32,000 nt of DNA, taken from NCBI RefSeq assembly GCF_017876815.1, contig NZ_JAGIOS010000004.1, positions 60,001 through 92,000 on the forward strand. The letters are read 5' to 3'. Positions 560 through 32,000 of this stretch are shown here, one piece after another; positions within the stretch are counted from its first letter, which is position 1; each line of letters opens with the position of its first letter. The notes beneath the pieces were generated by a model. That model was not told where the DNA came from and made no database searches. It saw only the letters and a program-made list of their open reading frames with translations. The DNA is from Sinorhizobium meliloti (GTDB taxonomy: Bacteria; Pseudomonadota; Alphaproteobacteria; Rhizobiales; Rhizobiaceae). Position numbers and translations under genes: made by a program.

Positions 560-1160
560 TCGTAGCCCGACTCGCGCCGTTCACGATTCGTGCCAATTAG
601 CTCGCCGAAATGAAGAAAAGCGCTTTGTGGTGACTGTCAGCAAGTTAGCCTAAATAAGGATAGGAGTCTGGCTAACAAGTCTGCGTAGCGAGCCTTACAA
701 ACCACTGAAGGTCTCGGATGGCTAACTGCACGCTGCACACACCTTCTGCACGCCGAGACTCGCTCGGTGACTACCAGAAGATGCTGCTGAGCCCGTGCCA
801 TGCCGGTCAAGGCGAGCGCGAGAAGCTCCCGCGAACGCTCCTGCATATGCCGGCGCCCGAAGACGGCCAGTGTTGTTTCCGTGATGGCTTCCGCAAAGAA
901 AGCATGGTTGGGTCCCGCTGCGAAACCGAACATTTCGCCTGGGAGATGAAAGGATACGACTTGTCGGCGTCCATCTGAAAGGAGGCGGTGACACGCACGG
1001 CTCCGGTCGAAACCTGATAGCACTTGTCGTTCAGATCCCCCTGCGCATAGATGTCGCGACCCGGCTTGTAGGTGGCGACAAGATGCGGCCCAGAAACTGG
1101 GGCCGGTCCAAGGTGTTCGGCCTCGATGGACTGTGGTTTGGCTTGTGCAGCGGCGTACAT
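560..1160 (-). pseudogene. Crp/Fnr-family (FixK-like) transcriptional regulator, decayed
   Basis: The N-terminal cNMP-binding part (..VATYKPGRDIYAQGDLNDKCYQVSTGAVRV) is in one frame. The continuation (LLSDGRRQVVSFHLPGEMFGFAAGPNHAFFAEAITETTLAVFGRR..) is in another, with a frameshift near 985-995. The HTH region is recognisable only across further shifts and an in-frame stop (..YPYLG*LADSHHKAL..). Confidence 0.6.
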
Positions 1161-1239
1161 GAATTATCCCCCGTTCGATGTGGGGACAGATTGCCAATTC
1201 GCGTGACCCGGGGATATTCGGTTAGATCACTAAAGGGAA

Positions 1240-1336
1240 CTACTTAGCCGCCTCGATCAGGCTGTTGATCACGCCGAGCAGGTCGGCACCGGTGAACGGT
1301 TTCGTCAATGTCGTGTAGTCCACACGTTGCTGAAGG
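1240..1336 (-). pseudogene. C-terminal scrap of a response-regulator receiver domain
   Basis: The minus-strand translation is ..LQQRVDYTTLTKPFTGADLLGVINSLIEAAK*. The KPF motif followed by a terminal helix is typical of receiver domains. The upstream part is replaced by the IS66-A tnpB fragment. Confidence 0.25.
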
Positions 1337-1483
1337 GCCGACAAGCCATCAAGCGGATACTTTCCCTGGCCGACGGCGAAAGAAGGAGTTGCGCATCTGA
1401 CGCAGGCTCAGCTTTCGATGCTTGTCGAAGGGATTGATTGGCGTCGACCGGCGTGGACTTCCGCTCCAGCTCGGACCGGCTAA
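1337..1483 (+). pseudogene. tnpB: IS66 TnpB (Orf2) C-terminal fragment
   Basis: The translation ..SGYFPWPTAKEGVAHLTQAQLSMLVEGIDWRRPAWTSAPARTG* has the GIDWRxP tail typical of IS66 Orf2. An in-frame TGA lies at 1331-1333. Confidence 0.7.
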
Positions 1484-1546
1484 GAGCTTTATTTTGCTTG
1501 AAAATCTGGGCAAAATGCTAGCGCTTCAGGCGCAAATCGGCTAGGT

Positions 1547-2898
1547 TTGCGGTCATGGAAACGACGTCGCTGGACAGTCGTGACGAAGTATCTGCATTGC
1601 GCGCTCTTCGCTGAACAGGCGGCGAAACTTGAGAGCCAAGAAGCCGAAGTCAGCAAGCGCGACTCCATTATCGGTCTTCTACGCGCACAGTTGGAACTGC
1701 TCCGCCATCGGCAGCACGGTCCTTCCTCTGAAAAGATCGACCGGAAGATCGAGCAATTTGAACTGATGCTGGAGGAGATCGAGGCCTCCCGTGCCGAGGC
1801 TGAGATGCGTTCTGGCAAGAACCCTTTACCGGAGCTGGACGACGCATTCGAGAAGCCGAAGCGCAAACCGTTGCCCGATGGTCTTCCAACCGAAGAGCGG
1901 GTCTATGCAGCGCCCTGCAATTGTCCGACGTGTGGTGGCGCATCGTTCCTGAAGGCCGCCGACAAGGTCGTTCAGGTGATGGAGCACGTGCCGGCGTCCG
2001 TTAAGGTTGTCCGCCATGTCGAGAAGCGCATGATCTGCAGGGACTGCGATACGACGGTATCCGGCGAAATGCCTACCTTGCCGATCGAGCGAGGCAAGCC
2101 CGGACCGGGCTTGCTCGCGCATATCATGGTCGCCAAGTTCGACGATCACATTCCGCTCTATCGTCTATCCGAGATGTACGACCGGCTGGGAATAGACATC
2201 TCCCGCTCCGTCATGGCGGACTGGGTGGGCCGTGTGTCCGTTCTGCTTGCGCCGCTCATCTTGCTGATTAGAGCGCATATCGCAGCGGTCGACCGAATAC
2301 ATACGGATGATACCCCGGTCGATGTTCTCGACCCAGGGCGAGGAAGGACCAAAACCGGCAGGGTCTGGGTCTACGTCTTCGATGGTAGCGGCTACCAAGA
2401 TACCACTCCCGGAGCCATTGCCTAATACTATAGCCCCGACCGTAAGGGCGCGCATCCGGCCGACCATCTCGCAAACTTCAGCGGTGTGATGCATGCCGAT
2501 GGCTATGGTGGTTACAAGAAGCTCTACGGCAACCAGATCGTCGAGGCCCCCTGCATGGCGCATGTGCGCTGCAAGTTCCATGATGTGATCAAGCTGAAGC
2601 CATCCCCGATCGCCGACGAAGCGCTGTCGCGCATCGGTGCGCTCTACGATATTGAGGATCGTATCCGCGGGATGTCGGCTGACCAGCGGCGTACACTGCG
2701 CCAGCAACATGCCAGGCCCATTCTGGCGGATCTCAAGAGCTGGATAGAAGAGACGCTTTCGACGCTGCCACACAAGCAGAAGCTGGCCGAGGCAATGCGA
2801 TATGCCCTCTCGCGATGGGCAGCATTGAGCGTTTACATCGACGATGGCCGTGTCGAAATCGATAACAACATAGCTGAACGAGCCATGCGTCCGCTTGG
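1547..2898 (+). pseudogene. tnpC: IS66 transposase TnpC of element A, 5' part
   Basis: The translation shows CPxCGG..CRDC zinc-finger-like motifs, ..HIPLYRLSEMY.. and ..HTDDTPVDVLDPG..GRVWVY... There is an in-frame TAA at 2423-2425. Reading stops making sense after ..NNIAERAMRPLG at 2898, and the sequence continues exactly at 12594 (..IGRKNWLFAGSDKGG..). Confidence 0.85.
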
Positions 2899-2926
2899 CG
2901 GGCCTGAGTCATTACGCACTCCTTCT

Positions 2927-4986
2927 TTAAGTATCTGTAAACATTGGAAGCGTCTCCGCGTCGGCGATGTGACACGGGCGCGCCTTTCGGGCTATCGCGG
3001 CTTGGACCGTCGCAGAAGCCAGGTCGCTGGCCCGGATTTGGTACGGCGCGCCGGGAACCACCTGCTCAGCAGACAACATCTTCGTCTTGATCAGGTGGCG
3101 TATCCGATGGTTGGTAACGCCCAAGGCCGCCGCAGCCTCTGTCATGGTCATCCACTCGCCGTCCTTGTCTGCTGATTTGTACGCGTGGATTGCGCGTACG
3201 CGCCTTACAGAAGCGACACGGTGTGCCGTCCAGGTTTTTCCTTGCCCCGTGGGCATGCCCATTCGATTGAGCGACGCGGCGATATGTTCATCCGACCAGC
3301 GCCCAGCCATGCTGCGCATCACCCCCAGCGCATCCTCCGTGGTGGCACAACCGTGCTCGCCGCTCTGGGGTTTGCGTACTTTTAGCTCTGAATGCTGACC
3401 ACCCTTCCAATGGATCGTCAGCACCACCTCACGCACCGCATCGTCGACATCAACGACAATGTCGGCAATCATGGTACGGAGCAATTGCTGGCGCGCGCGC
3501 ATGGTCACATCGGGTGAATCCCAGGCAGCCTGTAGATTATCGGCAAGGTTCGTGAAGGTGTCTGGGTCGACCTCGATGGTCGAAGGACTGTCGGCAGGCT
3601 TGCGCACTTCCAGGTCTCGCACGCGGCGTAACGCAGTCTCCCAATTCTTCTCAAGCTGCGCAGCAATCAGACGGTTGTCGGGGTCACATGCCGCATAGCG
3701 CCGCTCGGCAAGGCTAGCCTCGTAGCGGGCCTGCCGCAGTTCCAAATCGTGAATGTGGCGCTGATCTTCCTGTCGCTCCCGGTGCATCCGCTCTGCTTCA
3801 AAGGTCGCCTCGATTGCTAACGGTTCTACCGCGCGCAACAACTCGCGCGCAACCGCCGCGTCGACCCGCGGGCCGCCGAACGTCATGCATCGCGGCAAGC
3901 CCATCATCAGATTTGGCTTGTCGCAGCGATAGACCGGCCGACTTTGCGGATTGCCCGTATAGGCAACACTTAGTCGCCGCCCACACCGTCCGCAGGTCAG
4001 TAGACCCGATAATAGCGCCTTGCCGCCGCGGCCCGATTTGGTCCCGCCCGAGCGGCCATAATTGTTAAGCGCCAGTTGCTGTTGGTTGCGCTCGTACTCG
4101 TCCCAGGTGATGTAACCTTCGTGATGGTCTCTGATCATTACCTCCCACGTGCCAGCCGGCTTGCCGTGCCCGTAAGTCCGCCGCGCCCGGCCATCGACGT
4201 TGGCAGTCCGCTTCTCGCTCTTTCCATAAACATAGACGCCGGCATAGAAGGGGTTTTTGAGCATTACGGTAGCGGACTGGCGTCCAGACGAAGCTGGTCA
4301 TGCGACCTTCATCGGACGGCCGTGGGAAATGGACCTGATCCTTCGTCATCGACAGCAGCACCTGACGTGCACTTCCAAGCTCATGGAAGCGGGTGAAGAT
4401 GGATCGGATTACCTCCTGCAGACGCAGATCAGGATCAAGCCCGAGCCCGGCCTCTCTATGCCAGATGTAGCCGAACGGTACAGAAAGGCGCAATTCGCCG
4501 CGCCGCGCCTTCGATCTGGCGGCATCGAGCATTCGGGCTCTTAGCACACCCAATTCAAACTCGCTGATACTGCCCTTCATGCCCAGTAGCAGACGATCGT
4601 TGGGCCGACATGGATTGTAGACACCGTCATGGTCTATGACGCGGGCTTCAACGAGACCGCATAGTTCGAGCAGATGGTGCCAGTCGCGGCCGTTGCGTGC
4701 GAGCCGTGAGGCATCGAAACACAAAACGGCACCAACTTTGCCGGCGCACAACAAGGCGACGAGACGATCAAAGCCGGGGCGTGCAACCGTTCCGCTGGCA
4801 GAGCGTCCGAGGTCGTCGTCGATGACCTCAATGTCGCCGAAGCCGCGTTGTCGCGCGACGTCAACAAGATCATACTGGTCGCTGGCTTTCCAGATTGGTC
4901 ATGACCTGCGACTGAGTGGATTGCCGCACATAAACGACTGCCTTGCGCGCGAGTAGCGCTGCCGGAATTAAGTCAGTGCTGGTCAT
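2927..4986 (-). pseudogene. Large serine recombinase of copy X, with at least two frameshifts
   Basis: The start reads MTSTDLIPAALLARKAVVYVRQSTQSQVMTNLESQR, and a frameshift near 4885 precedes QYDLVDVARQRGFGDIEVIDDDLGRSASGTVARPGFDRLVALLCAGKVGAVLCFDASRLARNGRDWHHL... A second shift lies near 4270 before MLKNPFYAGVYVYG..HEGYITWDEYERNQ..CGRCGRRL... It is colinear with the intact 696-aa paralog at 7540-9630. Confidence 0.85.
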
Positions 4987-5127
4987 CGTTGAGCTCCTCG
5001 ACGACCAGACCGGCAGCCTGCATCAGCAGGCAAGCCAGTGTTGATGTCGCCTGCTTGCGCTCTTTGTCGCTCAGTCCGTCGAGTGTTCGCGCCTTGAATA
5101 TCAGGTCGAGCTGTCGGCCCGACGCCG
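4973..5127 (-). pseudogene. C-terminal part of small ORF b of copy X, cut by IS66-B
   Basis: The translation ..GRQLDLIFKARTLDGLSDKERKQATSTLACLLMQAAGLVVEELNDDQH* is homologous to the tail of ORF b in copy Y (..DQLVLELERQ..GLVETLADLLLEALE..DDHEDHV*). The N-terminal 12 codons lie at 12279-12252. Confidence 0.5.
5120..5127. repeat. 8-bp target-site duplication of IS66-B (CGACGCCG), left copy
   Basis: CGACGCCG immediately precedes GTAAGCG at 5128, and an identical octamer lies at 12244-12251 just beyond the other terminus. IS66-family elements are known to make 8-bp duplications. Confidence 0.85.
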
Positions 5128-5149
5128 GTAAGCGCTCATTTCCATGCGC
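5128..5149. repeat. IS66-B terminal inverted repeat (tnpC-proximal end)
   Basis: GTAAGCGCTCATTTCCATGCGC is identical to the reverse complement of the other end. Confidence 0.85.
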
Positions 5150-5198
5150 GTTGACGCGGCCCGTTTGACCGGGGTCGCTGTGCGACGGCTGCATTGGA

Positions 5199-6818
5199 TC
5201 AGGCAGCGGCTGCTTTGGTGAAGTTGAAGGGCAAGAGATCGGTGATGTCAGTATCTGTTGCGCGCTGTGGCAATTCACTAAGCACGTGGCGCAAGTAGGC
5301 CAAGGGCTCGACGCCGCAGGCGCGACAGGTCAGCATGATGCTGTAGACGACAGCGCTGGCCCTGGCTCCCTCCACGGTATCGCTGAACAGCCAGGATTTT
5401 CTTCCAGTGGCAAAAATCCTGATATCGCGTTCGAGAAGGTTGTTGTCGATCGACATCCTGCCGTCTTCGGTGTAGCGCGTCAGGTATTCCCACTGGTTCA
5501 GGGTGTAGGATACGGCGTCGCCGATCTTGCTATCGGGCAAGACCTTCGGCGCGATGTCATCGAGCCATGCCTTGAGAGCGATCAGGATGGGGACGCTGTG
5601 TTGTTGGCGGAAACGGCGGATGCAGTCGGCTTGCGTTTCGCCAACTTCCGGCTTTTCGTTCTTGGCTTGGCTTTCAATCCGGTAGAGCTGCTCGAAGAAC
5701 TTCAGCGCCTGCTCCGGCGGTCCGCCGCCTTTCTTCCTTGTCTTCAGAGCATCGATGAAGCGACGCCTCGAATGGGCCATACACCCAATATGGGTCGCTC
5801 CTGCCAGAGTGCGCCAGGCGGTGTAACCATCGCTCATCAATATGCCGCGGTAGTCGCCGAGGAAGGCCTGCGGATAAATCTGGCCGCGGCCGGGTTGATA
5901 ATCGAGCAGCACGATCGGCTCGCCGCTGTCTTCACCGCTCCTGTATGCCCACATGAAGGATGTGCTGGTGGCCTCCCTGTCCTTTTCCTTCAGCACCTGG
6001 ACCGTTGTCTCGTCACCATGGATCAGCGGTTGTGAACGAAGCCGGAGCTTCAGCGCGTCATAGATGCGAGAGAGATGCCTCTCGCTCGAGCCGATCACCC
6101 AGTGACCCAAAGCACCGCGGCTGACGGGAACGCCGGCGCGCTCGAAGGCCTGGGCGAGACGGTAGAGCGGCGTGCCGTCGATGTATTTGTGGACCAGTGC
6201 AAATGCCAGCGTCGAGGCCGTGGCGATGCTGCCCGGCAAGGGCTGCGCGGGCATTGGCGCGAGAACGACAGGCGTGTTGATGCCGGTCCGGTCGCAATGG
6301 CGGCAGGCGTACTTGAACCGCACATTCTGCAGGACCTTGGCCTTCACCTCGATATGGAGCTGCTCGGTGACGGCCTCACCCATGCGATGCATCTGATGAC
6401 GGCAGCAAGGGCAGGCCTTCTGGCCGTCGGCAAGGTCATACTCGACACGCTCGCGCGGCAGGTGTTCCGGCAGGGGCTTGCGGCCACGCTTCTTGCCCTC
6501 CGGTTTCTCGATCGTCGCAAAACCGGTTTCCGGCAGGTCGACGACCTCGCCATCTTCTCCGCTGGCGTCGTCTTCATCGGCAACCTGCTCGGCTTCATCG
6601 AAGAGGCGGTCCACATGCTTTTCGCTCTTCGGCGCAAAACGATGCAGCCGCGCCAGCTCCAACTCTTCCTCGAGCTTGACCACGCGGGCGCTGAGCGCTT
6701 CTTTCTCGGCTTTCAGCGCGGCGATTTCGGCAGCATTTGCCGCCAACTGCGCCATCAGTTCTGCAACGCTTGGTTCGCCGGATCGAGTCATCGTAGTTTT
6801 GAATCTGAACCGCACCAC
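5199..6818 (-). CDS. tnpC: IS66 transposase TnpC of element B, intact (539 aa)
   Basis: This full-length ORF has a leucine-zipper-like N-terminus, CPCC..CRHC motifs, ..GDETTVQVL.., ..SIDNNLLERDIRIFATGRKSWLF.. and a conserved C-terminus. Confidence 0.9.
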   Translation of the reverse strand: MVRFRFKTTMTRSGEPSVAELMAQLAANAAEIAALKAEKEALSARVVKLEEELELARLHRFAPKSEKHVDRLFDEAEQVADEDDASGEDGEVVDLPETGFATIEKPEGKKRGRKPLPEHLPRERVEYDLADGQKACPCCRHQMHRMGEAVTEQLHIEVKAKVLQNVRFKYACRHCDRTGINTPVVLAPMPAQPLPGSIATASTLAFALVHKYIDGTPLYRLAQAFERAGVPVSRGALGHWVIGSSERHLSRIYDALKLRLRSQPLIHGDETTVQVLKEKDREATSTSFMWAYRSGEDSGEPIVLLDYQPGRGQIYPQAFLGDYRGILMSDGYTAWRTLAGATHIGCMAHSRRRFIDALKTRKKGGGPPEQALKFFEQLYRIESQAKNEKPEVGETQADCIRRFRQQHSVPILIALKAWLDDIAPKVLPDSKIGDAVSYTLNQWEYLTRYTEDGRMSIDNNLLERDIRIFATGRKSWLFSDTVEGARASAVVYSIMLTCRACGVEPLAYLRHVLSELPQRATDTDITDLLPFNFTKAAAA

Positions 6819-6845
6819 CGCGTCAACCGCAGAAGTTCAGAGCCG

Positions 6846-7046
6846 TCAGCCGGCGATCTGATATTGCCGCACAGGGTGGCGCACCATGGCGTCGATATCG
6901 ATGCCGTCGAGAATCCAGTGAAGCTGCTCAGTCGAAAGCGTCACCACCGCCGTCTCCCGGCGTGGCCATCTGAACCGATCTTCGGTCAATCGCTTCAGGA
7001 CCATCACAAAACCGGACCGATCGAAGAACAGGAGCTTCATCCGGTC
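6846..7046 (-). pseudogene. tnpB: IS66 TnpB of element B, C-terminal 66 codons (split by LSR copy Y)
   Basis: The translation is DRMKLLFFDRSGFVMVLKRLTEDRFRWPRRETAVVTLSTEQLHWILDGIDIDAMVRHP... Joined to 9810-9658 it gives an in-frame 117-aa TnpB, the normal size (the intact copy at 24479-24835 is 118 aa). Confidence 0.85.
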
Positions 7047-7126
7047 ACGCCAGCGACCGACATTCTACATACGGTTTTCGTTTTGCGACGATAGCCTATC
7101 CGTGGCATCCACTATTCGGCTGCAAG

Positions 7127-7543
7127 GTGCAGGTCTCGCGTTATCGTCGCGGCAAGACGCTGATGCGAATCCATACGGACGAGCGTCCCGATCATCTCTC
7201 CCGTGAGTTGCCGAACTGGATGTTTGACGAGACTTATTGCAGCGGCATGAGGCTTGGATCACCCGAGATCAGCATTGATGGCCTGAATGAATTGGCGGCC
7301 GCGTTGGCGTCGTTCGACGCGACTCAGGCAGGAGGCGCAAGATCTCGTCCTTCGAGGAAGAAGGAGAAGGGTGATGCGAAGCAGGCGACATCAAAATCGC
7401 GACCAACTCGTTCTGGAGTTGGAGCGTCAAAATCGTCAGGTTCCGGTGGTCAAGAACGTCAAAGGACTGGTGGAAACGCTGGCGGATCTTCTGTTGGAGG
7501 CTTTGGAAGCGAGCAGAACGGCGAAGACGGGAGGCGTAGATGA
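7127..7543 (+). CDS. Small ORF a of copy Y (hypothetical; conserved N-terminal WM-D---C-GM-LG motif)
   Basis: It starts with GTG, and its stop overlaps the recombinase ATG as ATGA (7540-7543). The N-terminal half (..LPNWMFDETYCSGMRLGSPEISIDGLNELAAAL..) is homologous to copy X (..AGWMVDPVVCAGMTMGLARVDLAALIELNGL..). The C-terminal half is low-complexity R/G/S and may be out of frame. Confidence 0.4.
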   Translation: MQVSRYRRGKTLMRIHTDERPDHLSRELPNWMFDETYCSGMRLGSPEISIDGLNELAAALASFDATQAGGARSRPSRKKEKGDAKQATSKSRPTRSGVGASKSSGSGGQERQRTGGNAGGSSVGGFGSEQNGEDGRRR

Positions 7544-7562
7544 CCACGAAGATCACGTCTGA
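7374..7562 (+). CDS. Small ORF b of copy Y (62 aa, hypothetical; basic N-terminus, helical acidic C-terminus)
   Basis: The ATG at 7374 is preceded by AAGGAG (7361-7366). The product is MRSRRHQNRDQLVLELERQNRQVPVVKNVKGLVETLADLLLEALEASRTAKTGGVDDHEDHV. The same frame, the same Shine-Dalgarno plus ATG arrangement and a homologous sequence occur in copy X. It overlaps the recombinase start. Confidence 0.4.
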   Translation: MRSRRHQNRDQLVLELERQNRQVPVVKNVKGLVETLADLLLEALEASRTAKTGGVDDHEDHV

Positions 7563-9630
7563 CCATCTGGGCCGCGCCGCGGTGGTCTATGTCCGCCAGT
7601 CAACCATGGCGCAAGTGACGGGCAATCTCGAAAGCCAGCGCCGGCAATATGATCTGGCTGGCGCCGCCGCAACGACCGGGTTTGCATCGGTAACTGTGAT
7701 TGATGATGACCTTGGACGCTCAGGCTCAGGCAGCGTGGAGCGACCCGGGTTTGAGCGGCTTGTCGCGCTGGTCTGCTCAGGCAATGTAGGAGCGGTCTAC
7801 TGCATCGAGGCATCGCGTCTGGCGCGCAATGGGCGGGACTGGCATCATCTGATCGATCTGTGCGCGCTCACCGGTACGCTGGTCATCGATCCAGATGGCG
7901 CCTTTGATCCAAGGCTTGTCAATGATCGTCTGCTGCTTGGGCTGAAAGGCACGATGTCGGAGTACGAACTGAGCTTGATCCGTCAGCGCGGCATTGCCGC
8001 GCGCGATTCCAAGGCGGGACGCGGGGAGTTCCGGTTCATGTTACCTCCGGGCTTCTGCTGGAGTGAGGCGGGCAAGATCGAGATCGATCCGGACGAACAT
8101 GTGGCGGAGACGATCAAGCTCGTCTTTGCCAAATTCCGGGAACTGGGAAGTGGGCGACAAGTCTTTTTGTGGCTGCGGTCGGCCGATATCAAGATGCCCG
8201 TCGTCTTGCGCAACGTGGAAGTGCGCAAGCTCGTCTGGAAGGCGCCAGCTTATCATAGCGTCATGCAGACCCTCCACAATCCACTCTACGCGGGCGCCTA
8301 TGCCTTCGGAAGGCGAGCACAACGAACGTTGATCATCGATGGTCGCGCTCGCAAGGCCAACGGGCTGCGCAAGCCCAGGGATGATTGGAGTGTATTGCTG
8401 CGCGACAATCATGAAGGTTACATCACCTGGCGGGAGTATGAAGAGAACCAGAAGCTTCTGACCGAGAACGCACACATGAAGAGGAATTGTGATCGCAAAT
8501 CGGCGCGCGGCGGCCGTGCCCTATTGACGGGACTGATGCGATGCGGCCGCTGTGGCCGAATGATGCGCGTCTTCTACGGCAGCGCAAAAGGCAACGCGCA
8601 TCGCTATCAGTGCCGCGGCGACGACGCTCGTGTGGGTCTTGGGCTTTGCATCGGAATTGGCGGCGTGAGGGTCGATCGTGCCGTGGCCACTCAGATTCTG
8701 GAAGCGGTTTCGGATCGCGCTGTCGAAGCGGCGATCTTCGCCTCGGATCAGGTCGAGCGGTCCGCAAGAGATGTTATAGCGGCAATTGAGCGGGACCTTG
8801 AAGGCGCACGCTATGAGGCGTCACTGGCCGGACGCAGATACGAGCTGGTCGATCCGGCCAAACGTCATGTCGCACGCGAACTGGAAGCCCGTTGGAACGA
8901 TGCACTGGAACGTGTGAGCGTGCTTGAGCGCAAGATCGAAGAATTGTCCGCGCTGTCGGCAGCACGTCCTGCAATTGATCGTGGTCGGCTTCTACAGCTT
9001 GCCCATGACTTACCGACAGTCTGGAATGCACCATCAACCGATACGCGGACAAAGCAGCGGCTCATCCATATTCTGGTCCAGGAGATCATCTGCGATCTCG
9101 ACGATACGACCAACGAGGCTGTGCTCTTGATCCATTGGACCGGCGGTCGCCATACCGAAGTGCGCGTGGCGCGGGTCAAGACTGGCCGATATCCGAGCGA
9201 CATGGCACCGCCCGCCGTAGAGGCGCTACGAAAGCTGGGCGGACATTGGCCAGATCGGGAGCTCGCAGTGTCCCTCAATCGGATGCTTTGCAAGACCGGT
9301 GATGGTGAGGGTTGGACGGCCGTGCGTGTCCGCGACATGCGCGAGCGGCTGGGCATTCCAGAATATGATCCCACAAAAGCGGGCAGTCCCGTGATTAGCC
9401 TGATGAAAGCTGCCGAAAAGCTCGGTATCTGCATCGGATCGGCCAAGAGCCTGGTGCAGAAAGGAATTCTACCTGCAACGCAGATCCTTCCAGGCTCGCC
9501 ATGGATGGTTCCCATAGAAGCACTAACGTCAGAGGCCGTTCTGATAGGGGTGCAGGGTGTGGTTGGGCGGCGGCCCAAGATTTATGAAGATTATCAATAC
9601 GATAAAGTTGTCAGATTGCCCGGACTCTAA
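7540..9630 (+). CDS. Large serine recombinase (696 aa), intact
   Basis: It has a resolvase-type catalytic N-terminus (AVVYVRQSTMAQV..ESQRRQY..DDDLGRSGS..IEASRLARNGRDWHHL), a recombinase domain (..NPLYAGAYAFGRR..), a zinc-ribbon-like CGRCGRMM..YQC, a long coiled-coil-like region and a C-terminal extension. Confidence 0.9.
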   Translation: MTTKITSDHLGRAAVVYVRQSTMAQVTGNLESQRRQYDLAGAAATTGFASVTVIDDDLGRSGSGSVERPGFERLVALVCSGNVGAVYCIEASRLARNGRDWHHLIDLCALTGTLVIDPDGAFDPRLVNDRLLLGLKGTMSEYELSLIRQRGIAARDSKAGRGEFRFMLPPGFCWSEAGKIEIDPDEHVAETIKLVFAKFRELGSGRQVFLWLRSADIKMPVVLRNVEVRKLVWKAPAYHSVMQTLHNPLYAGAYAFGRRAQRTLIIDGRARKANGLRKPRDDWSVLLRDNHEGYITWREYEENQKLLTENAHMKRNCDRKSARGGRALLTGLMRCGRCGRMMRVFYGSAKGNAHRYQCRGDDARVGLGLCIGIGGVRVDRAVATQILEAVSDRAVEAAIFASDQVERSARDVIAAIERDLEGARYEASLAGRRYELVDPAKRHVARELEARWNDALERVSVLERKIEELSALSAARPAIDRGRLLQLAHDLPTVWNAPSTDTRTKQRLIHILVQEIICDLDDTTNEAVLLIHWTGGRHTEVRVARVKTGRYPSDMAPPAVEALRKLGGHWPDRELAVSLNRMLCKTGDGEGWTAVRVRDMRERLGIPEYDPTKAGSPVISLMKAAEKLGICIGSAKSLVQKGILPATQILPGSPWMVPIEALTSEAVLIGVQGVVGRRPKIYEDYQYDKVVRLPGL

Positions 9631-9657
9631 CAGAGGGATGCATTATGAAACGCGCTG

Positions 9658-9810
9658 GCGGCGGCGATTGCAAAAGGCAAAGACCGCAGGCGCAAACGGG
9701 TCGAGCTCCATCGTCTCCTGCACCAGGACCGCAAGGCTGTTGATGCCGGCGCGGAAGTCGATCGGTTCGCGGTGCAGGTAGACCTTGAGATCAGCGCCCA
9801 GTCTGAACAT
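9658..9810 (-). pseudogene. tnpB: IS66 TnpB of element B, N-terminal 51 codons
   Basis: The translation MFRLGADLKVYLHREPIDFRAGINSLAVLVQETMELDPFAPAVFAFCNRRR then runs into the end of copy Y. Confidence 0.85.
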
Positions 9811-10249
9811 GGCCCAATGCTCCAATGACAGCCGTCAACGCATCCACATCCCTGCATTCCAGCGAAAGCTTCACGCCGTTTGGCAGCAACGCGCTGATTT
9901 TGGATAAACCTGACGGATGGCCCGTTTTCTCCAGTGATGCTCGTTGTTCTTCATCACACGTGACCGACATATCCAGCGAGCAGGTCCCGACAGGCAGGCT
10001 GCCGTCTGCTGCCACGACCGGGATAAACGCCGATCGTGGAGATACCGCCAGGGGGCCAGACTCCCTGGCCTCCTTGACCCACTTGCGCAGTAGGTTGGCA
10101 TTGATCCCATGCGTAAGCGCAAGGCCGGATATCGACACACCAGGTTCAAGGCAGGCCGCAACAAGCCGCGCCTTTGATCCTGGATCGTAGCGGCGTCGAC
10201 CATCGCGCCCCACATGCCGCACACGCAGTTTCTGCTCTTCGTCACTCAT
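9791..10249 (-). CDS. tnpA: IS66 TnpA (Orf1) of element B
   Basis: This 152-aa ORF has the HTH-like segment ..SKARLVAACLEPGVSISGLALTHGINANLLRKWVKE.. typical of IS66 Orf1. It overlaps the tnpB start. Confidence 0.85.
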   Translation of the reverse strand: MSDEEQKLRVRHVGRDGRRRYDPGSKARLVAACLEPGVSISGLALTHGINANLLRKWVKEARESGPLAVSPRSAFIPVVAADGSLPVGTCSLDMSVTCDEEQRASLEKTGHPSGLSKISALLPNGVKLSLECRDVDALTAVIGALGHVQTGR

Positions 10250-10308
10250 ATTTGGTGTCCACCTATTTTAAGTGGACACTTCATGCGGCAGAGGCATCAA
10301 CGAGAAAA

Positions 10309-10330
10309 GGCGCATGGAAATGAGCGCTTA
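10309..10330. repeat. IS66-B terminal inverted repeat (tnpA-proximal end), lacking its outermost base, which sits at 12243 beyond the intron
   Basis: The plus strand reads GGCGCATGGAAATGAGCGCTTA, followed by the intron GTGCGG. Confidence 0.85.
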
Positions 10331-10358
10331 GTGCGGCTGCAAAGCCGATGAAAGATAG

Positions 10359-12185
10359 TTGATGAAAGTTCAACACGGAGAAGAAGTGGCGAATCACTCT
10401 GACCCCGAGTCATGCGGCGCACATCGCGAGGTGTGCGTCGAAGCGTTGACAGGGGAAACCGGCAGGCCGGCCATTGAGCCGCGAAATGATCAATTCGGGA
10501 TGCCGACGCTGTTAAGCGAAGCGGAAGGCAACACGGTGCATGGCGTCAATCGCAAGCCATGCCCCGATCCCGCGCGGTCGGAGACCCTGTGCATGTCGGG
10601 AAGTCTTTCATACGGAAGCAGCGAGATCTCATCAGTGTCCAGTGCAAATGGACTGGACGGGGCTGGGAAGGTCGTTGATCATAATCCGGTCGTCAACGCT
10701 GATGAGAAGTCGGATACACCCATAGTACCGCAGAAGTTGCCGAACAAAGGAGATGATCCTGCGGAGGCAATGGAGGGAAGGGGTGTAATCGGAGGGAACG
10801 CCTTTGAGACTCCAGCGTGCCGGACGCAGAGCCGGATAAAACACGCTTCGATGGGGATCGAAGGTGTACGGGAAGCCGCCAAGCGGGACCCGAAGATGCG
10901 TTTCACGGCGCTGATGCACCACATCACTCCGACGCTATTGGTGAAGAGCTTCCATGCGCTGCGCAAGCAAGCGGCGAGCGGTGTGGATGGCGTGACGTGG
11001 TACGACTATGAGAAGACCCTCGAAGGGCGCGTGCACGAACTGCACCGGGAGATTCAATCCGGTGCCTATCGTGCTCAACCCTCCCGACGGGTCTACATTC
11101 CGAAGAATGACGGCAGGCTCCGTCCTCTCGGCATTGCAGCGCTGGAAGAAAAAGTCGTGCAGATGGCCGTCACCACGGTTCTGAACGCGATCTATGAGCA
11201 AGACTTCCTCGGCTTCTCATACGGGTTCCGGCAAGGAAGGGGCCAGCATGACGCGCTGGACGCCTTGTGGGTTGGGATCGACAAGCGGAAGATCAACTGG
11301 ATACTGGACGCGGATATTCGCTCGTTTTACGATGAAATCGATCACGAGTGGATGCTTCGTTTCCTGTCGCATCGAGTTGGTGACCGCCGGCTGATACGTC
11401 TGATCCACAAATGGTTGAAAGCGGGCACGATTGAGGATGGCCGCCGCGTCGCATCAACGCGAGGAACTCCTCAGGGCTCTGTAATTAGCCCGGTGCTATC
11501 GAATATCTATCTGCATTACGCATTGGATTTATGGGTCCAGCAATGGCGTACTCGAAATGCTAAAGGCGACGTGATCATTGTACGTTATGCCGACGACAGC
11601 GTGATTGGGTTCCAGTACGAAGGAGAGGCGCAGCGCTTCCTGCAAGCATTGCGGGAGCGTCTCGCTCAGTTTGGTTTGCAGCTACACCCGGAAAAGACGC
11701 GGCTGATACGCTTTGGGCGGTATGCTGCGCGAAACTGCCGGGAGCGTGGTATCCGCAAGCCAGAGACCTTCGACTTTTTGGGATTCACGCACTGCTGCGG
11801 CAGGCGGCGCAATGATGGGGGCTTCAAGATTGTCCGTCTAACGATCAAGAAGCGCATGCGCACGACGCTGGAGGCCATTCGGGGAACGCTTATGCGACGA
11901 CGCCATGAACCGGTGGCAGTAGTAGGTCGGTGGCTACGGCAAGTGTTACAGGGGTATTTGAACTACCATGCGGTGCCAGACAATCTGAGAAGATTGGGAG
12001 GATTCCGCTGGGAAGTTGGTCGCGCTTGGCGACACGCGCTGATGCGTCGGAGCCAACGACACCGGCTGTCTTGGGAGCGTTTCCAAAGGCTGCTTCGCAA
12101 ATACCTGCCACCGTGCCGCCTGATGCATCCGCATCCAGATGCTCGGCTTACCGTCACAACATCCGATAGGAGCCGTATGCGGTAG
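10359..12185 (+). CDS. Group II intron-encoded reverse transcriptase/maturase; the true start is probably internal (ATG 10770 or 10851, or a non-ATG codon near 10690)
   Basis: RT blocks are present (..RVYIPKNDGRLRPLGIAALEEKVVQ.., ..RGTPQGSVISPVLSNIYL.., ..IVRYADDSVIGF..), as is the maturase region (..FDFLGFTH.., ..GYLNYHAVP..). No HNH endonuclease tail was seen. The first ~140 codons run through intron domains I-III. Confidence 0.9.
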   Translation: MMKVQHGEEVANHSDPESCGAHREVCVEALTGETGRPAIEPRNDQFGMPTLLSEAEGNTVHGVNRKPCPDPARSETLCMSGSLSYGSSEISSVSSANGLDGAGKVVDHNPVVNADEKSDTPIVPQKLPNKGDDPAEAMEGRGVIGGNAFETPACRTQSRIKHASMGIEGVREAAKRDPKMRFTALMHHITPTLLVKSFHALRKQAASGVDGVTWYDYEKTLEGRVHELHREIQSGAYRAQPSRRVYIPKNDGRLRPLGIAALEEKVVQMAVTTVLNAIYEQDFLGFSYGFRQGRGQHDALDALWVGIDKRKINWILDADIRSFYDEIDHEWMLRFLSHRVGDRRLIRLIHKWLKAGTIEDGRRVASTRGTPQGSVISPVLSNIYLHYALDLWVQQWRTRNAKGDVIIVRYADDSVIGFQYEGEAQRFLQALRERLAQFGLQLHPEKTRLIRFGRYAARNCRERGIRKPETFDFLGFTHCCGRRRNDGGFKIVRLTIKKRMRTTLEAIRGTLMRRRHEPVAVVGRWLRQVLQGYLNYHAVPDNLRRLGGFRWEVGRAWRHALMRRSQRHRLSWERFQRLLRKYLPPCRLMHPHPDARLTVTTSDRSRMR

Positions 12186-12242
12186 TGCCGCACGTACGGA
12201 TCTGACCGGGGGGCGATGGGTAACCATCGTCCCTACCGGGAC
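12170..12242 (+). ncRNA. Group II intron domains V and VI (catalytic hairpin and branch-point hairpin)
   Basis: The folds were done by hand and are described under the intron feature. Confidence 0.7.
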
Positions 12243-12243
12243 C

Positions 12244-12251
12244 CGACGCCG
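12244..12251. repeat. 8-bp target-site duplication of IS66-B (CGACGCCG), right copy
   Basis: It is identical to 5120-5127. Confidence 0.85.
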
Positions 12252-12445
12252 GCGCCAGCGTATTGCGGGATCTCATCATCTTCCTCCTGAGTGATTCTAC
12301 GTCCACCTCGGAAGAGTGCAGGCTTGTCGCCGCCTGTGACCAGCCCGTTAAGTTCGATCAGCGCCGCAAGATCCACGCGTGCCAGACCCATCGTCATGCC
12401 GGCGCACACCACAGGATCAACCATCCATCCGGCAATCGAAACCAC
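12252..12445 (-). pseudogene. Small-ORF region (ORF a N-terminal part, ORF b first 12 codons) of LSR copy X, separated from the rest by IS66-B
   Basis: ORF a reads ..VVSIAGWMVDPVVCAGMTMGLARVDLAALIELNGLVTGGDKPALFRGGRRITQEEDDEIPQYAGAGVG. ORF b starts at AGGAGGAAGATGATG (ATG at 12279 or 12276) in the +1 frame: MMRSRNTLAPAS, continued at 5127. Confidence 0.45.
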
Positions 12446-12593
12446 GGCACCTGTCGGCCCTAAAACATGCAGAAATTGACCTGTCGCTCGTTCGTCGACG
12501 CGGCGAACGCTAACCTTTTGTCCAAAATATGGATGCCAGCGATAATGAACCTCGACTTCATCGCCGACATGGGCAGAATGAACGGGGGATGGG

Positions 12594-12814
12594 AATCGGA
12601 AGAAAAAACTGGCTCTTCGCCGGGTCAGACAAGGGCGGCGAGCGCATCGCCAATATCCTGACGATCATCGAGACTGCCAAACAACATGGCCTCAAATCCG
12701 GAGGCCTATCTCACAGACGTCCTGACCCGGATCCAGAGCCATTCAAAGGATCGGCTCCAGGAATTGCTGCCGTGGCAGTGGGCGCCGGCGAAAGACCGAT
12801 ACGAGGCTGCGTGA
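12594..12814 (+). pseudogene. tnpC: IS66 transposase TnpC of element A, 3' part
   Basis: The translation ..IGRKNWLFAGSDKGGERIANILTIIETAKQHGL is followed by a one-base frameshift (extra A near 12697). The expected tail NPEAYLTDVLTRIQSHSKDRLQELLPWQWAPAKDRYEAA* then ends at 12812-12814. Confidence 0.8.
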
Positions 12815-13119
12815 TGGCACGGTCGAGGTTCATCTACACGCTCAAAGAAGTCGCCGTCATGATCGGGGAGAATCTCGAATTAATCGAGGAGGTGACGGCC
12901 AACTCGGACAATATCGCCGAAGGCGAATTGGTTTATGTCCGCGATGGCAGTGAAGATGGCACCAAAGGCCTGACCGAAAATGGAATTGACGACCTTCGAG
13001 ATCTCCTGGCCGACATACGAACGTGGGATGGTGGAATCCGCCAGTTCCTCGTCGATGAACAATGCGACCTCGAGATGATCGAGCGCGTCATGGCAGATGA
13101 GGTGAAGCGCGTCCTATAG
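12814..13119 (+). CDS. Hypothetical acidic 101-aa protein, extra ORF inside IS66-A downstream of tnpC
   Basis: Its ATG overlaps the tnpC stop (TGATG, 12812-12816). It lies between tnpC and the IS terminus at 13164. The product, MARSRFIYTLKEVAVMIGENLELIEEVTANSDN.., matched no family I recognise. Confidence 0.45.
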   Translation: MARSRFIYTLKEVAVMIGENLELIEEVTANSDNIAEGELVYVRDGSEDGTKGLTENGIDDLRDLLADIRTWDGGIRQFLVDEQCDLEMIERVMADEVKRVL

Positions 13120-13141
13120 CTTCGGCGGCTCGACCAAGCAG

Positions 13142-13164
13142 AAATGCTTTCGCCGGACGCTCAC
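13142..13164. repeat. Right terminal inverted repeat of IS66-A
   Basis: The reverse complement, GTGAGCGTCCGGCGAAAGCATTT, begins like the other IS66 termini in this window. Confidence 0.6.
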
Positions 13165-13547
13165 GCGATAACGACGGGCCTTCGGGTCCGAACCCTGAGA
13201 TCATTGAGGGTTCGTACGACGTCCAGCCCTGCGAGAACGCCTAAAACGCCGTCGTATTTCCCGCCGGTGGGCTGAGTATCAAGGTGACTGCCGATATACA
13301 GTGGCAAGGCTTCACCGTCAGACCCATCTCGCTGTGCGAACATGTTTCCCATGTCGTCGACAGCCACCGCCATACCGGCTTCAACGCACCACTTCGCGAA
13401 TAACCTCCGGCCTTGCGCGTCCTCATCTGTGAGTGCTTGTCGATTATTGCCGCCAGCTATCCCGGGTCCGATTTTAGCCATCTCCATTAAAATATTTTAA
13501 AGACGATCTGGATTGACTAACGCGTTGCTGAGGTTACTCCTGCTCAT
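13165..13547 (-). pseudogene. M20-family amidohydrolase (N-carbamoyl-amino-acid / allantoate amidohydrolase type), N-terminal ~125 codons only
   Basis: The translation is MSRSNLSNALVNPDRL*NILMEMAKIGPGIAGGNNRQALTDEDAQGRRLFAKWCVEAGMAVAVDDMGNMFAQR..IGSHLDTQPTGGKYDGVLGVLAGLDVVRTLN... There is an in-frame TAA at 13497-13499, and the gene is cut off by the IS66-A terminus at 13164/13165. Confidence 0.75.
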
Positions 13548-30859: not shown

Positions 30860-30886
30860 CGGAGCAAGTAGGAGATTAGAACCGCA

Positions 30887-30942
30887 AAAGAAAAAGGCCC
30901 CCCAAACGTCGCCGTCGTGGAAGCCTCTCTCATATCTAAGCA
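30887..30942 (-). ncRNA. Candidate repABC counter-transcribed RNA (ctRNA, incompatibility determinant) in the repB-repC gap
   Basis: On the minus strand, TTGACG (complement of 30971-30976), a 17-nt spacer and GATTCT (complement of 30949-30954) precede a ~56-nt segment. That segment ends in a hairpin (AGGCUUCC..GGGGGGCCU, 30897-30928) followed by UUUUUCUUUU. The position, size and orientation match the known ctRNA of repABC operons. Confidence 0.55.
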
Positions 30943-31035
30943 ATCTGAGAATCGCATTTCCCCGAATCCCCGTCAAGAGTCTTTGGCGCCGTTTTTGGTG
31001 AGCGGATTTCTTTTGCCTTCTGAAAGGTGAAGGAA

Positions 31036-32000
31036 ATGCAGGTTGGAAATGTGACGACGCCCTTCGGGCGGCGGTCGGTTACGCTTGCCCAAATTAAAGG
31101 GCAGATGCGGACGGCCGAAATAAAAGCCGGCAAGAAAGCCGACAAATGGAAGGTGTTTCACGACGCTTGCGATGCGAGGGCGGTGCTCGGCATCCAGGAC
31201 CGTGCTCTGGCGGTCCTGGATGCGCTGTTGACGTTCTACCCGGACAACGAGCTTTGCGAGGAGCGGGGTCTCGTTGTATTCCCGTCGAACGACCAGCTTT
31301 CGGTCCGCGCACACGGCATCGCCGGCACGACTCTGCGCCGGCATCTTGCCGCGCTTGTCGACGCCGGCCTGATCCAGCGCAAGGACAGCGCCAACGGTAA
31401 GCGCTACGCCCGGAAGGACGAAACTGGCGGAATCGAAGAGGCGTTCGGCTTCAGCCTAGCGCCGCTGCTTGCGCGCGCCGAGGAGCTCGCGCACGCCGCG
31501 CAGCAGGTGGCGGCCGAGCGCAAGCGGTTCCGCATCACTAAGGAAGCGCTGTCGATCTGCCGGCGCGACGTCCGCAAGTTGATCAGCGCTGCGGCAGAGG
31601 AGGGGGCTGCCGGCGACTGGGGACACATCGAGGAGATGTTCCTCGGCCTGACCGGGCGTATCCCCCGCACGCCGACGGTTGCCGACCTACAGCAAATCCT
31701 CGAGGAAATGGAGATGCTGCGCGAGGAAATCATCAACCGGCTGGAAATTCAGGAAAATTCCGAAAATATGGACAGCAATGCTGTTCAAAATGAACGTCAC
31801 TTACAGAATTCAAATACCGAATCCAGCAATGAACTTGAACCTAGCTCCGGAAAAGAGCAGGGGGCGAAATCGAGCCAAGCCATCCGGCCGACAAAAGAGC
31901 CGACAAAGGCATTTCCGCTTGGTATGGTGCTGCAGGCATGCCCAGGTATCCGCGACTATGGGCCGAGCGGTAATGTCGAAAGCTGGCGAGACCTGATGTC
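31036..32000 (+). CDS. repC: RepC replication initiator, N-terminal ~321 codons; continues beyond the window end
   Basis: The frame is open from the ATG at 31036 (after AAGGTGAAGGAA) to the window end. The translation reads MQVGNVTTPFGRRSVTLAQIKGQM..DKWKVFHDACDARAVLGIQDRALAVLDALLTFYPDNELCEERGLVVFPSNDQLSVRAHGIAGTTLRRHLAALVDAGLIQRKDSANGKRYARKDETGGIEEAFGFSLAPLLARAEEL... It is missing from the ORF track because it has no stop in the window. Confidence 0.9.
   Translation, partial: MQVGNVTTPFGRRSVTLAQIKGQMRTAEIKAGKKADKWKVFHDACDARAVLGIQDRALAVLDALLTFYPDNELCEERGLVVFPSNDQLSVRAHGIAGTTLRRHLAALVDAGLIQRKDSANGKRYARKDETGGIEEAFGFSLAPLLARAEELAHAAQQVAAERKRFRITKEALSICRRDVRKLISAAAEEGAAGDWGHIEEMFLGLTGRIPRTPTVADLQQILEEMEMLREEIINRLEIQENSENMDSNAVQNERHLQNSNTESSNELEPSSGKEQGAKSSQAIRPTKEPTKAFPLGMVLQACPGIRDYGPSGNVESWRDLM
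31741..31850. other. AT-rich stretch inside repC, candidate oriV
   Basis: There is a local drop in GC (..GGAAATTCAGGAAAATTCCGAAAATATGGACAGCAATGCTGTTCAAAATGAACG..AATTCAAATACCGAATCC..). In characterised repABC plasmids the origin lies in an AT-rich region within repC. Confidence 0.4.

Follow-up and report, generated by a model that had tools for sequence, protein, structure and literature searches.

Background

Large serine recombinases (LSRs) drive several kinds of mobile DNA. The clostridial elements Tn4451/Tn4453 and Tn5397 are moved by the LSRs TnpX and TndX, respectively, via a circular intermediate, and the skin element in sigK (recombinase SpoIVCA) and the fdxN element (XisF) are serine-recombinase elements that interrupt a gene and are excised from it. 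In LSRs such as those of phiC31 and Bxb1, the central dinucleotide alone sets the polarity of the exchange. Nested-transposon stratigraphy is known from the long terminal repeat (LTR) retrotransposon nests in the intergenic DNA of maize and from the mosaics of insertion sequences (ISs) within ISs on rhizobial symbiotic plasmids. Here, we analyze an 11.8-kb nest on a plasmid of Sinorhizobium meliloti that comprises two IS66-family elements (IS66-A and IS66-B), two LSR elements (X and Y) lodged in the IS66 transposition genes tnpC and tnpB, and a group II intron, and that abuts the remnant of a Peptidase_M20 hydrolase gene (M20). An earlier reading of the bare sequence (hereafter, the original prediction) had arranged these components into a chronology of successive insertions.

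Sinorhizobium is also a genus in which group II introns are known to home into ISs: RmInt1 resides in ISRm2011-2, RmInt2 in the inverted repeats of ISRm17, and Sr.md.I1 in an IS66 transposase open reading frame (ORF) (PMC4615759, PMC5894124). ISRm17 belongs to the ISNCY family (PMC10194956).

Data and methods

The window, that is, the whole 32,000-nucleotide stretch analyzed, corresponds to C4:60001-92000, on the 229.5-kb contig C4 of a 7.34-Mb genome assembled into four replicon-sized contigs; the nearest public relatives of C4 are Sinorhizobium plasmids. Element anatomy was established using an ORF listing, Pfam, and Rfam. The relatives compared were S. medicae ml42 pMl1 (L001), S. meliloti AK21 (L002), GR4, ml28 pSymB (L005), and ml66 pMl1 (L008), with further comparisons to Mesorhizobium huakuii (L004), ml42 pMl2, ml56 pSymB, R. 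rhizogenes pRiA4, and contigs C3 and C4 of the same genome. PLSDB was searched for records that span particular junctions or carry the intron. A census of Y-type elements covered 80 relatives, one genome per species, at 63-98% amino-acid identity (loci L013-L092).

Layers of the nest

The 11.8-kb stretch is a genuine nest of five layers (Table 1) and, with high probability, the product of three mobility mechanisms and one deletion, ordered as set out below. For every layer there is an empty-site relative that lacks it, and the inner boundaries of the original prediction hold within 2 bp.

Table 1. Features of the nest and its immediate flanks, in window coordinates. IRL and IRR, left and right inverted repeats; TSD, target site duplication; attL and attR, left and right attachment sites.
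Feature	Coordinates	Strand	Content
Backbone gene 3' remnant	1243..1352	-	cut at 1352, left side of the deletion junction; C3 paralogs and the ml42 pMl1 copy run on
IS66-A head	1353..2898	+	last ~130 bp of tnpB-A (1353-~1483) and 5' 1.34 kb of tnpC-A (ATG 1556)
LSR element X, right-hand part	2899..5127	-	recombinase pseudogene 2927-4986 and 141 bp of the upstream small-ORF region; attR core CC 2897-2898
TSD, left copy	5120..5127		CGACGCCG, 8 bp, made by IS66-B
IS66-B left part	5128..7047	-	IRL 5128-5149, intact tnpC-B 5199-6818 (539 aa), 3' 67 codons of tnpB-B 7049-6846
LSR element Y	7050..9660	+	2611 bp with one core; core CG 7048-7049 and 9659-9660
IS66-B right part	9661..10330	-	5' 50 codons of tnpB-B 9810-9661, intact tnpA-B 9791-10249, IRR minus its last base
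Group II intron	10331..12242	+	5' GTGCG, 3' AC (...GGGAC); antisense to the IS66-B genes
IS66-B IRR last base and TSD, right copy	12243..12251		C at 12243; TSD CGACGCCG 12244-12251
LSR element X, left-hand part	12252..12593	-	small-ORF region; attL core CC 12592-12593
IS66-A tail	12594..13164	+	tnpC-A 3' end (RKNWLF... motif), fourth ORF 12814-13119, IRR ending ...GGACGCTCAC
Peptidase_M20 "Zn-dependent hydrolase" gene 5' remnant	13165..13547	-	127 codons, TAA at codon 17

X is a 2.6-kb cargo-free element that splits tnpC-A, whose pieces on the + strand lie at 1547-2425 and 2486-2896 and resume at 12594. Its predicted entry at 2898/2899 and 12593/12594 is borne out by the empty site in ml42 pMl1, where an uninterrupted IS66 (85% identical) aligns to 1353-2898 and 12592-13164 with a 2-bp overlap; comparison of attB, attL, and attR gives CC as the core, and the target is the G-I-G-R-K-N-W-L-F codon region of tnpC-A. 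The Resolvase, Recombinase, and Zn_ribbon domains of the X recombinase (Pfam) fall on frameshifted pieces, and ml28 has an intact 690-aa counterpart with 99.1% identity.

IS66-B, which consists of 5128-10330 and base 12243, is inserted in the small-ORF region of X, a short distance ahead of the recombinase gene. The left repeat of IS66-B, GTAAGCGCTCATTTCCATGCGC (5128-5149), starts with GTAAGCG at 5128, and its right repeat ends ...GAGCGCTTA at 10330; the inverted repeats are perfect over 22 nt once the intron is removed and, together with the 8-bp CGACGCCG duplication, they document the insertion that the original prediction had placed here. Two empty sites were found, one in a second X copy (C4:56464-56474, in the fragment C4:56123-57099) and the other in the IS66-A::X composite of AK21, with the target octamer occurring once in both. 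The tnpA-tnpB-tnpC gene order with DDE_Tnp_IS66, the GTAAGCG-initial repeats, and the 8-bp duplication identify IS66-B as an IS66-family member; Pfam matched HTH_Tnp_1 in tnpA, and the LZ, zf, DDE_Tnp_IS66, and IS66 C-terminal element domains in TnpC. Other copies of IS66-B have G...C ends and 8-bp TSDs of their own (GATATTTT in GR4 and GAGCTTGC on C3), and this genome holds no intact IS66-B. The insertion would cripple X, which also carries two frameshifts.

Y was likewise correctly assigned to tnpB-B: the GR4 and C3 copies of IS66-B represent the empty site, and removal of Y, with one core kept, yields an intact 117-codon tnpB-B. The target comprises the F-C-N-R-R/R-D-R-M-K codons of tnpB, with a palindromic CG core. 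The small ORF of Y is open at 7052-7543 and is followed by an intact recombinase gene (7540-9630), in which the Resolvase, Recombinase, and zinc ribbon domains occupy a single 696-aa ORF (Pfam). X and Y are only 68% identical. M. huakuii (L004:2963-5653 and L004:8545-8625) carries a 96%-identical Y at the same tnpB site in the opposite orientation, with an empty copy of the same IS adjoining, and the exchange falls exactly at CG.

The innermost insert in the right repeat is a mobile group II intron, as judged by its ribozyme domains (Rfam group-II-D1D4-6, 194.8 bits at 10365-10587, and Intron_gpII, covering D5-D6, 42.5 bits at 12168-12242), GUGYG/AY boundaries, and intact reverse transcriptase/maturase ORF (core about 10926-12185) with RVT_1. 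The copies in GR4 and on C3 lack the intron and serve as empty sites, which agrees with the predicted location in the terminal repeat of IS66-B; because these copies have G...C ends and their own TSDs, the intron lies 1 nt inside IRR, not at the edge of the IS. In PLSDB, the intron is present in 36 records at a query coverage of 80% or more and, among the matches listed, each starts in, or a few nucleotides before, an IS66-B-like repeat end.

The outermost element, IS66-A, shares no nucleotide similarity with IS66-B, and the IS66 LZ, zf, and DDE domains are present in both tnpC genes (Pfam). IS66-A is a truncated remnant, without IRL, tnpA, and the 5' part of tnpB; the complete form of the element is present in AK21. 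A short patch of its tail (window 12680-12700), beside a private 1-bp insertion, resembles the ml42-type IS66 and not AK21, ml28, or ml66, and is possibly a gene-conversion tract.

The decay gradient noted originally is borne out, with five frame-breaking lesions in the outer layers and none in the inner ones. Measured against intact homologues, tnpC-A carries a 2-bp deletion at ~1599, a TAA at 2423-2425, and a 1-bp insertion at ~12695, and the lesions in the X recombinase gene are deletions of 2 bp (~4877) and 11 bp (~4261). All five are private to this copy. The three tnpC-A lesions are absent from AK21 and, where comparable, from ml28 and ml66. Lesion-free and of full length are tnpA-B, tnpB-B, tnpC-B, the Y recombinase, and the intron ORF. 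All five lesions falling in the 3.6 kb of outer rather than the 5.8 kb of inner coding sequence has, by our own arithmetic, P of about 0.009 under uniformity.

Integration of the LSR elements

X belongs to a set of six X-type copies in this genome (window X, C4:44820, C4:56639, C3:579821, C3:653470, and C3:905233). All six abut a tnpC truncated at one and the same residue and lie antisense to it, with CC or GC cores, and their host transposases are only ~30% identical to one another. A C3-type LSR element sits in the C3 copy of IS66-B at the homologous tnpC codon, for which the window tnpC-B is the empty site (overlap GGC).

The C3 copy forms part of a second nest, at C3:579023-587356, where IS66-B carries the C3-type LSR element (579307-581890) at the tnpC site and is free of both Y and the intron; another IS66-family element (C3:582255-585404) is inserted in this IS66-B copy, at the point that corresponds to window 5766-5774. 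At C4:55545-57319, shortly before the window begins, an ml42-type IS66 tail contains an X copy that is truncated and matches X at 97-98.6% identity. This copy stops abruptly at C4:57099, ~220 bp before the syntenic backbone, at what appears as a further rearrangement junction.

The attP sites reconstructed for X, the C3 type, and Y share the arms AATGA...TCATT, exactly 22 nt apart, with the crossover pair at the center: CC in X, GC in the C3 type, and CG in Y, where the attP center is the perfect palindrome CGCTGG-CG-CCAGCG. The overlap is 2 bp in X (CC) and 3 bp in the C3 type (GGC), and in Y it is CG. These overlaps show conservative attP x attB exchange without target duplication, so that excision would restore tnpC exactly, the same principle that underlies the reconstruction of tnpB-B. 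The small gene is whole only across attP, since its reading frame begins at an ATG of the right arm and is carried on at the left end of the element; in Y, the ATG at 9645 reads through the reconstructed attP into the small ORF. The reconstructed attP and the ORF that spans it suggest that X and Y may excise and pass through a circular intermediate. By analogy with other LSR elements, their integration is presumably reversible. Assignment of the small ORFs to DUF5372 was not confirmed: the ORF of X scored an E-value of 0.053, below the Pfam cut-off, and that of Y gave no match.

In the Y-type census, 57 of the 80 relatives have TnpB fragments directly on their flanks, split at the same tnpB motif (26 antisense and 31 co-directional). 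Both orientations occur among Y-type relatives with the palindromic cores CG and GC, whereas the GG core is found in 14 co-directional loci and in one antisense locus whose target has GG on the other strand. Over the 57 species-level loci, orientation thus tracks the core dinucleotide, as would be expected of LSRs. Host taxa extend from Alphaproteobacteria to Burkholderiales and Verrucomicrobiota. In many short-read assemblies (loci L015, L019, L025, L027, L079, and others), the Y-type element makes up a 2.5-2.6-kb contig of its own; a repeat with many copies and exactly this unit length (~2.6 kb) would be expected to assemble in this way.

Taken together, X and Y rather probably represent an undescribed, widespread family of cargo-free 2.6-kb LSR elements that live solely inside IS66 transposition genes, in the tnpC (X) or tnpB (Y) region. 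Members would integrate conservatively in an orientation set by the core, excise, by analogy, and so act as hyperparasites that switch IS66 off and on; they would move among hosts of 30-80% identity, and their dispersed copies would reshuffle IS66 heads and tails. A literature search, with subscription journals outside its coverage, found nothing on an LSR element that targets IS66. If this reading is correct, what the nest records is no simple pile-up but an ongoing three-way contest in which IS66, the LSR elements, and a group II intron take part. The activity of such elements would bear on the control of IS66 activity and of plasmid rearrangement in rhizobia, and they could supply natural LSR/att pairs with defined short targets.

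Pairing of LSR elements and IS66 hosts

LSR elements and IS66 hosts pair in a fluid manner: one X variant (identity of 98.5% or higher) occurs in three or four different IS66 hosts, and in ml56 pSymB and at C4:56123 the X variant of the window sits in the ml42-type IS66. Conversely, three different LSR variants accompany the IS66-A tail, one of them the C3 type beside the same M20 gene in ml66. Y is 99.85% identical when inside an IS66 that is just 75-83% identical to IS66-B. In ml28 pSymB, X and the IS66-A tail match at ~99% and are joined to an unrelated IS66 head, with the identity switch exactly at the att junction. Compared with AK21, the IS66-A::X composite of the window is ~99% identical over its head and tail and over 1.4 kb at the 3' end of X, and 76-90% identical over the 5' third of X and the small-ORF region; X of AK21 is a mosaic. 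The ml28 and AK21 arrangements suggest that recombination between dispersed LSR copies reshuffles the halves of IS66 elements. The sharp identity drops exactly at att junctions, the presence of Y in a diverged IS66, and the orientation census argue for active, independent parasites of IS66. Both independent LSR entry and co-descent with the IS66 host occur.

The original prediction described a reciprocal conflict between the two kinds of element. That description overstates the case, the relationship being lopsided: LSR entry into IS66 is programmed and recurrent (six of six X-type elements of this genome at one tnpC codon, and 57 Y-type elements in other species at one tnpB site), whereas the entry of IS66-B into X is a single private event. 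No preference of IS66-B for an LSR element as a target is evident, and its insertion in X is unique in PLSDB.

Left-edge deletion and plasmid backbone

The backbone of ml42 pMl1 is syntenic with the window up to 1352 and again from 13164, which falls inside the intact 416-aa Peptidase_M20 gene of that plasmid, the empty site for IS66-A. The intact ortholog belongs to Peptidase_M20 and M20_dimer (Pfam, E-value 1.8e-26); the window remnant is 97% identical to it in DNA sequence, and the 109-aa M20 remnant of the window alone gave no Pfam match.

On the left, the end at 1337 that had been proposed does not stand. The homology boundary is 1352/1353, where the interior of tnpB-A is joined to the interior of a backbone gene: in AK21, the position corresponding to window 1353 is inside tnpB-A, with tnpA and the 5' part of tnpB preceding it, and on the other side the backbone gene extends past 1352 in ml42 pMl1 and in three C3 paralogs and stops in the window. 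Neither the left part of IS66-A nor the 3' 867 bp of M20 was found on any of the four contigs. Hence, both were lost in a deletion, and an inversion or translocation as the origin of the junction was rejected on the same ground. This deletion, which was missing from the earlier chronology, is datable solely as later than the arrival of IS66-A. The predicted junction of IS66-A with M20 at 13164/13165 holds.

Two observations concern the surrounding plasmid. Window 637-1352, with a Crp/FixK-like ORF region and the 3' end of the upstream gene, has three 90-96% identical copies on C3 and is annotated in other records as cyclic-nucleotide-binding or helix-turn-helix regulators; the window copy appears frameshifted at both ends. 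At window 30884-31038, matches to ctRNA_p42d (counter-transcribed RNA, - strand) and to the S-element (+ strand), shortly before a repC-like ORF that extends beyond the end of the window, identify C4 as a repABC-type plasmid.

Proposed order of events

In the sequence of events that we propose, IS66-A would have come against the M20 gene, presumably by DDE transposition, of which the right junction alone survives, and X integrated into tnpC-A by conservative recombination at its CC core, as its att sites show; no order between these two events is assigned. Next, as its inverted repeats, TSD, and empty sites show, IS66-B transposed into X, landing in the small-ORF region near the start of the recombinase gene, after which Y would have integrated at the palindromic CG core in tnpB-B; the intron would have retrohomed 1 nt inside the right repeat of IS66-B, with no order relative to Y assigned. 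At some point after the arrival of IS66-A, the deletion would have removed IRL, tnpA, the 5' part of tnpB, and 867 bp of the M20 3' end, and fused tnpB-A to the backbone gene. The disrupted outer genes would then have decayed neutrally, with the inner genes kept intact.

The part of the predicted chronology that runs from X through IS66-B to Y and the intron is upheld by the layer-lacking relatives and by two private junctions. No PLSDB record spans the IS66-B/X junction, and none spans the junction of Y with IS66-B (at least 97% identity), so that both junctions are private to this genome; more than 20 PLSDB records have that IS66-B with an uninterrupted tnpB. Since the intron parts the last base of the IS from the rest of the repeat, transposition after its entry is unlikely, and the intron probably followed the transposition of IS66-B. 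For Y, entry after the transposition of IS66-B is the parsimonious reading, given that this genome has no intact IS66-B. The remaining part, placement of IS66-A at M20 before the entry of X, fails as a deduction from the sequence: LSR integration is site-specific, conservative, and presumably reversible, IS66-A::X occurs elsewhere in AK21, and the pairing of LSR elements and hosts is fluid. The ml66 arrangement mildly favors IS66-A at M20 before LSR entry, and the AK21 composite mildly favors the opposite.

The proposed order is matched by the sequence identity of each layer to its nearest relative, which increases from the outer to the inner layers (IS66-A, 98.4-98.8%; X, 98.5-99.1%; IS66-B, 99.3-99.6%; intron, 99.6%; Y, 99.85%), but these values hinge on database sampling and provide no clock, reflecting time since inactivation and sampling, not insertion dates. 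Dating by synonymous divergence (dS) between layers was judged not meaningful, given the different families, different nearest relatives, and mosaicism. Several points weigh against the proposed order. Y leaves the ends of IS66-B intact, and IS66-B::Y is in principle mobilizable in trans. X, for its part, may have been in IS66-A before the latter reached M20: AK21 carries, at another locus, a complete IS66-A::X with tnpA and tnpB that matches at 99% identity in its head and tail and in the 3'-terminal 1.4 kb of X, and in R. rhizogenes pRiA4 an old copy of the composite has co-diverged (head 87%, X 85-90%, tail 84%). At least one pair of layers could thus have come already combined, above all IS66-A::X, either mobilized in trans or by excision of X, transposition, and re-invasion. 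In that case, the depth of the nest would overstate the number of sequential events at the locus, and the second step would precede the first. The 17 PLSDB records that span an IS66-A-like head/X junction and the conservative integration of LSR elements, whose excision would restore tnpC exactly, are compatible with such an arrival; against it, the occurrence of the X variant in three or four IS66 hosts and of the tail with three LSR variants implies that independent entries are common, and the tnpC-A lesions are private and not shared with AK21. We regard arrival in combined form as possible but doubtful.

Other points against the proposed order concern the outer edges. With the left end deleted, no TSD of IS66-A is available, and a simple insertion into M20 is unconfirmable; such an insertion at 13164/13165 would leave an 8-bp GCGATAAC duplicate beside the left end of IS66-A. 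In ml66 pMl1 (L008:15745-16900), the IS66-A tail (98.8%) abuts the same M20 gene 426 bp nearer to the 3' end of the gene, so the 13164/13165 junction may itself be secondary, the product of an adjacent deletion; the difference between the two junctions is due to a hot spot of insertion or, in one of the lineages, to a deletion adjacent to the IS. A TSD shared with ml66, suggested by a BLAST match that runs 9 bp beyond the end of IS66-A, was rejected as chance similarity, given that the IS actually abuts the gene 426 bp away. The ml66 tail is paired with a C3-type LSR fragment that is itself truncated by another IS. More generally, parts of the structure, the two outer IS66-A junctions in particular, could stem not from the listed insertions but from homologous or LSR-mediated recombination among dispersed copies, or from IS-adjacent deletion. 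The deletion junction at 1352/1353, the ml66 junction, the ml28 joining of X and tail to an unrelated head with the switch at the att junction, the mosaic X of AK21 (99% in the 3' part, 76-90% in the 5' part), and the short ml42-type patch in the tail all fit rearrangement. Yet the head and tail of IS66-A are cognate, both about 98.5-99% identical to the single element of AK21, and every inner junction bears a clean TSD or att signature; rearrangement is a rather unlikely account of these parts.

The nest is known from assembled sequence alone, and the C3 copy of IS66-B (98-99.6% identical over at most 1.3 kb) and the truncated X copy (97% over 643 bp) could in principle have been collapsed or mis-joined, but a chimera of IS66, LSR, or intron repeats is most improbable: the halves of one and the same outer element flank each inner element, with TSDs or att cores that agree between the two sides, X and Y are too different (68%) and IS66-A and IS66-B are dissimilar throughout, each partial state is present in independent assemblies, the genome is in four replicon-sized contigs, and mis-assembly cannot create 22-nt inverted repeats with an 8-bp TSD, 2-3-bp att cores, and AATGA-22 nt-TCATT arms.

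Successive insertion, with the left-edge deletion at some point after the arrival of IS66-A, is the reading that we retain. Nested mobile elements are an ordinary kind of structure, and the LSR components are the noteworthy part of this one; the nest is nonetheless a clean, unusually deep worked example that brings DDE transposition, serine recombination, and retrohoming together in 11.8 kb. Where elements are site-specific, recurrent, and perhaps excisable, nesting orders their entry into the sequence, not their arrival at the locus.

Comparison with known systems

The intron resembles RmInt2 in ISRm17 in that it resides in the terminal inverted repeat of an IS, with both repeats of one IS occupied in ml42 pMl2, and differs from it in that the host IS belongs to the IS66 family and is not ISRm17. 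Identification of IS66-B as ISRm17, and hence of the intron as RmInt2, was rejected on these grounds, ISRm17 being an ISNCY element (PMC10194956). The reported selected IBS2 (intron-binding site 2) of RmInt2, CTAGTTC, is also absent from the IS66-B repeat, and the analogy alone stands.

As in the maize and rhizobial nests, an inner element entered an outer sequence, disrupted outer copies decay, and a relative order is readable; unlike in the maize LTR nests, two of the inserting mechanisms (LSR integration and intron retrohoming) are site-specific and recurrent, and no clock of the LTR-divergence type is available. The interruption of genes by LSR-bearing inserts parallels the skin and fdxN elements, in that exact excision of Y gives an intact 117-codon tnpB. 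Unlike in those systems, the interrupted genes belong to another mobile element, no developmental programme is involved, and X and Y are multi-copy and move between different IS66 hosts. With Tn4451/Tn4453 (TnpX) and Tn5397 (TndX), X and Y share an LSR as the sole mobility enzyme, conservative insertion at a 2-bp core without target duplication, and a probable circular form. They differ from these clostridial elements in their size of 2.6 kb, their freedom from cargo, and their targeting of a codon region of IS66 tnpC or tnpB, and also in having a small ORF whose start lies at the far end of the element, so that only attP makes it whole.

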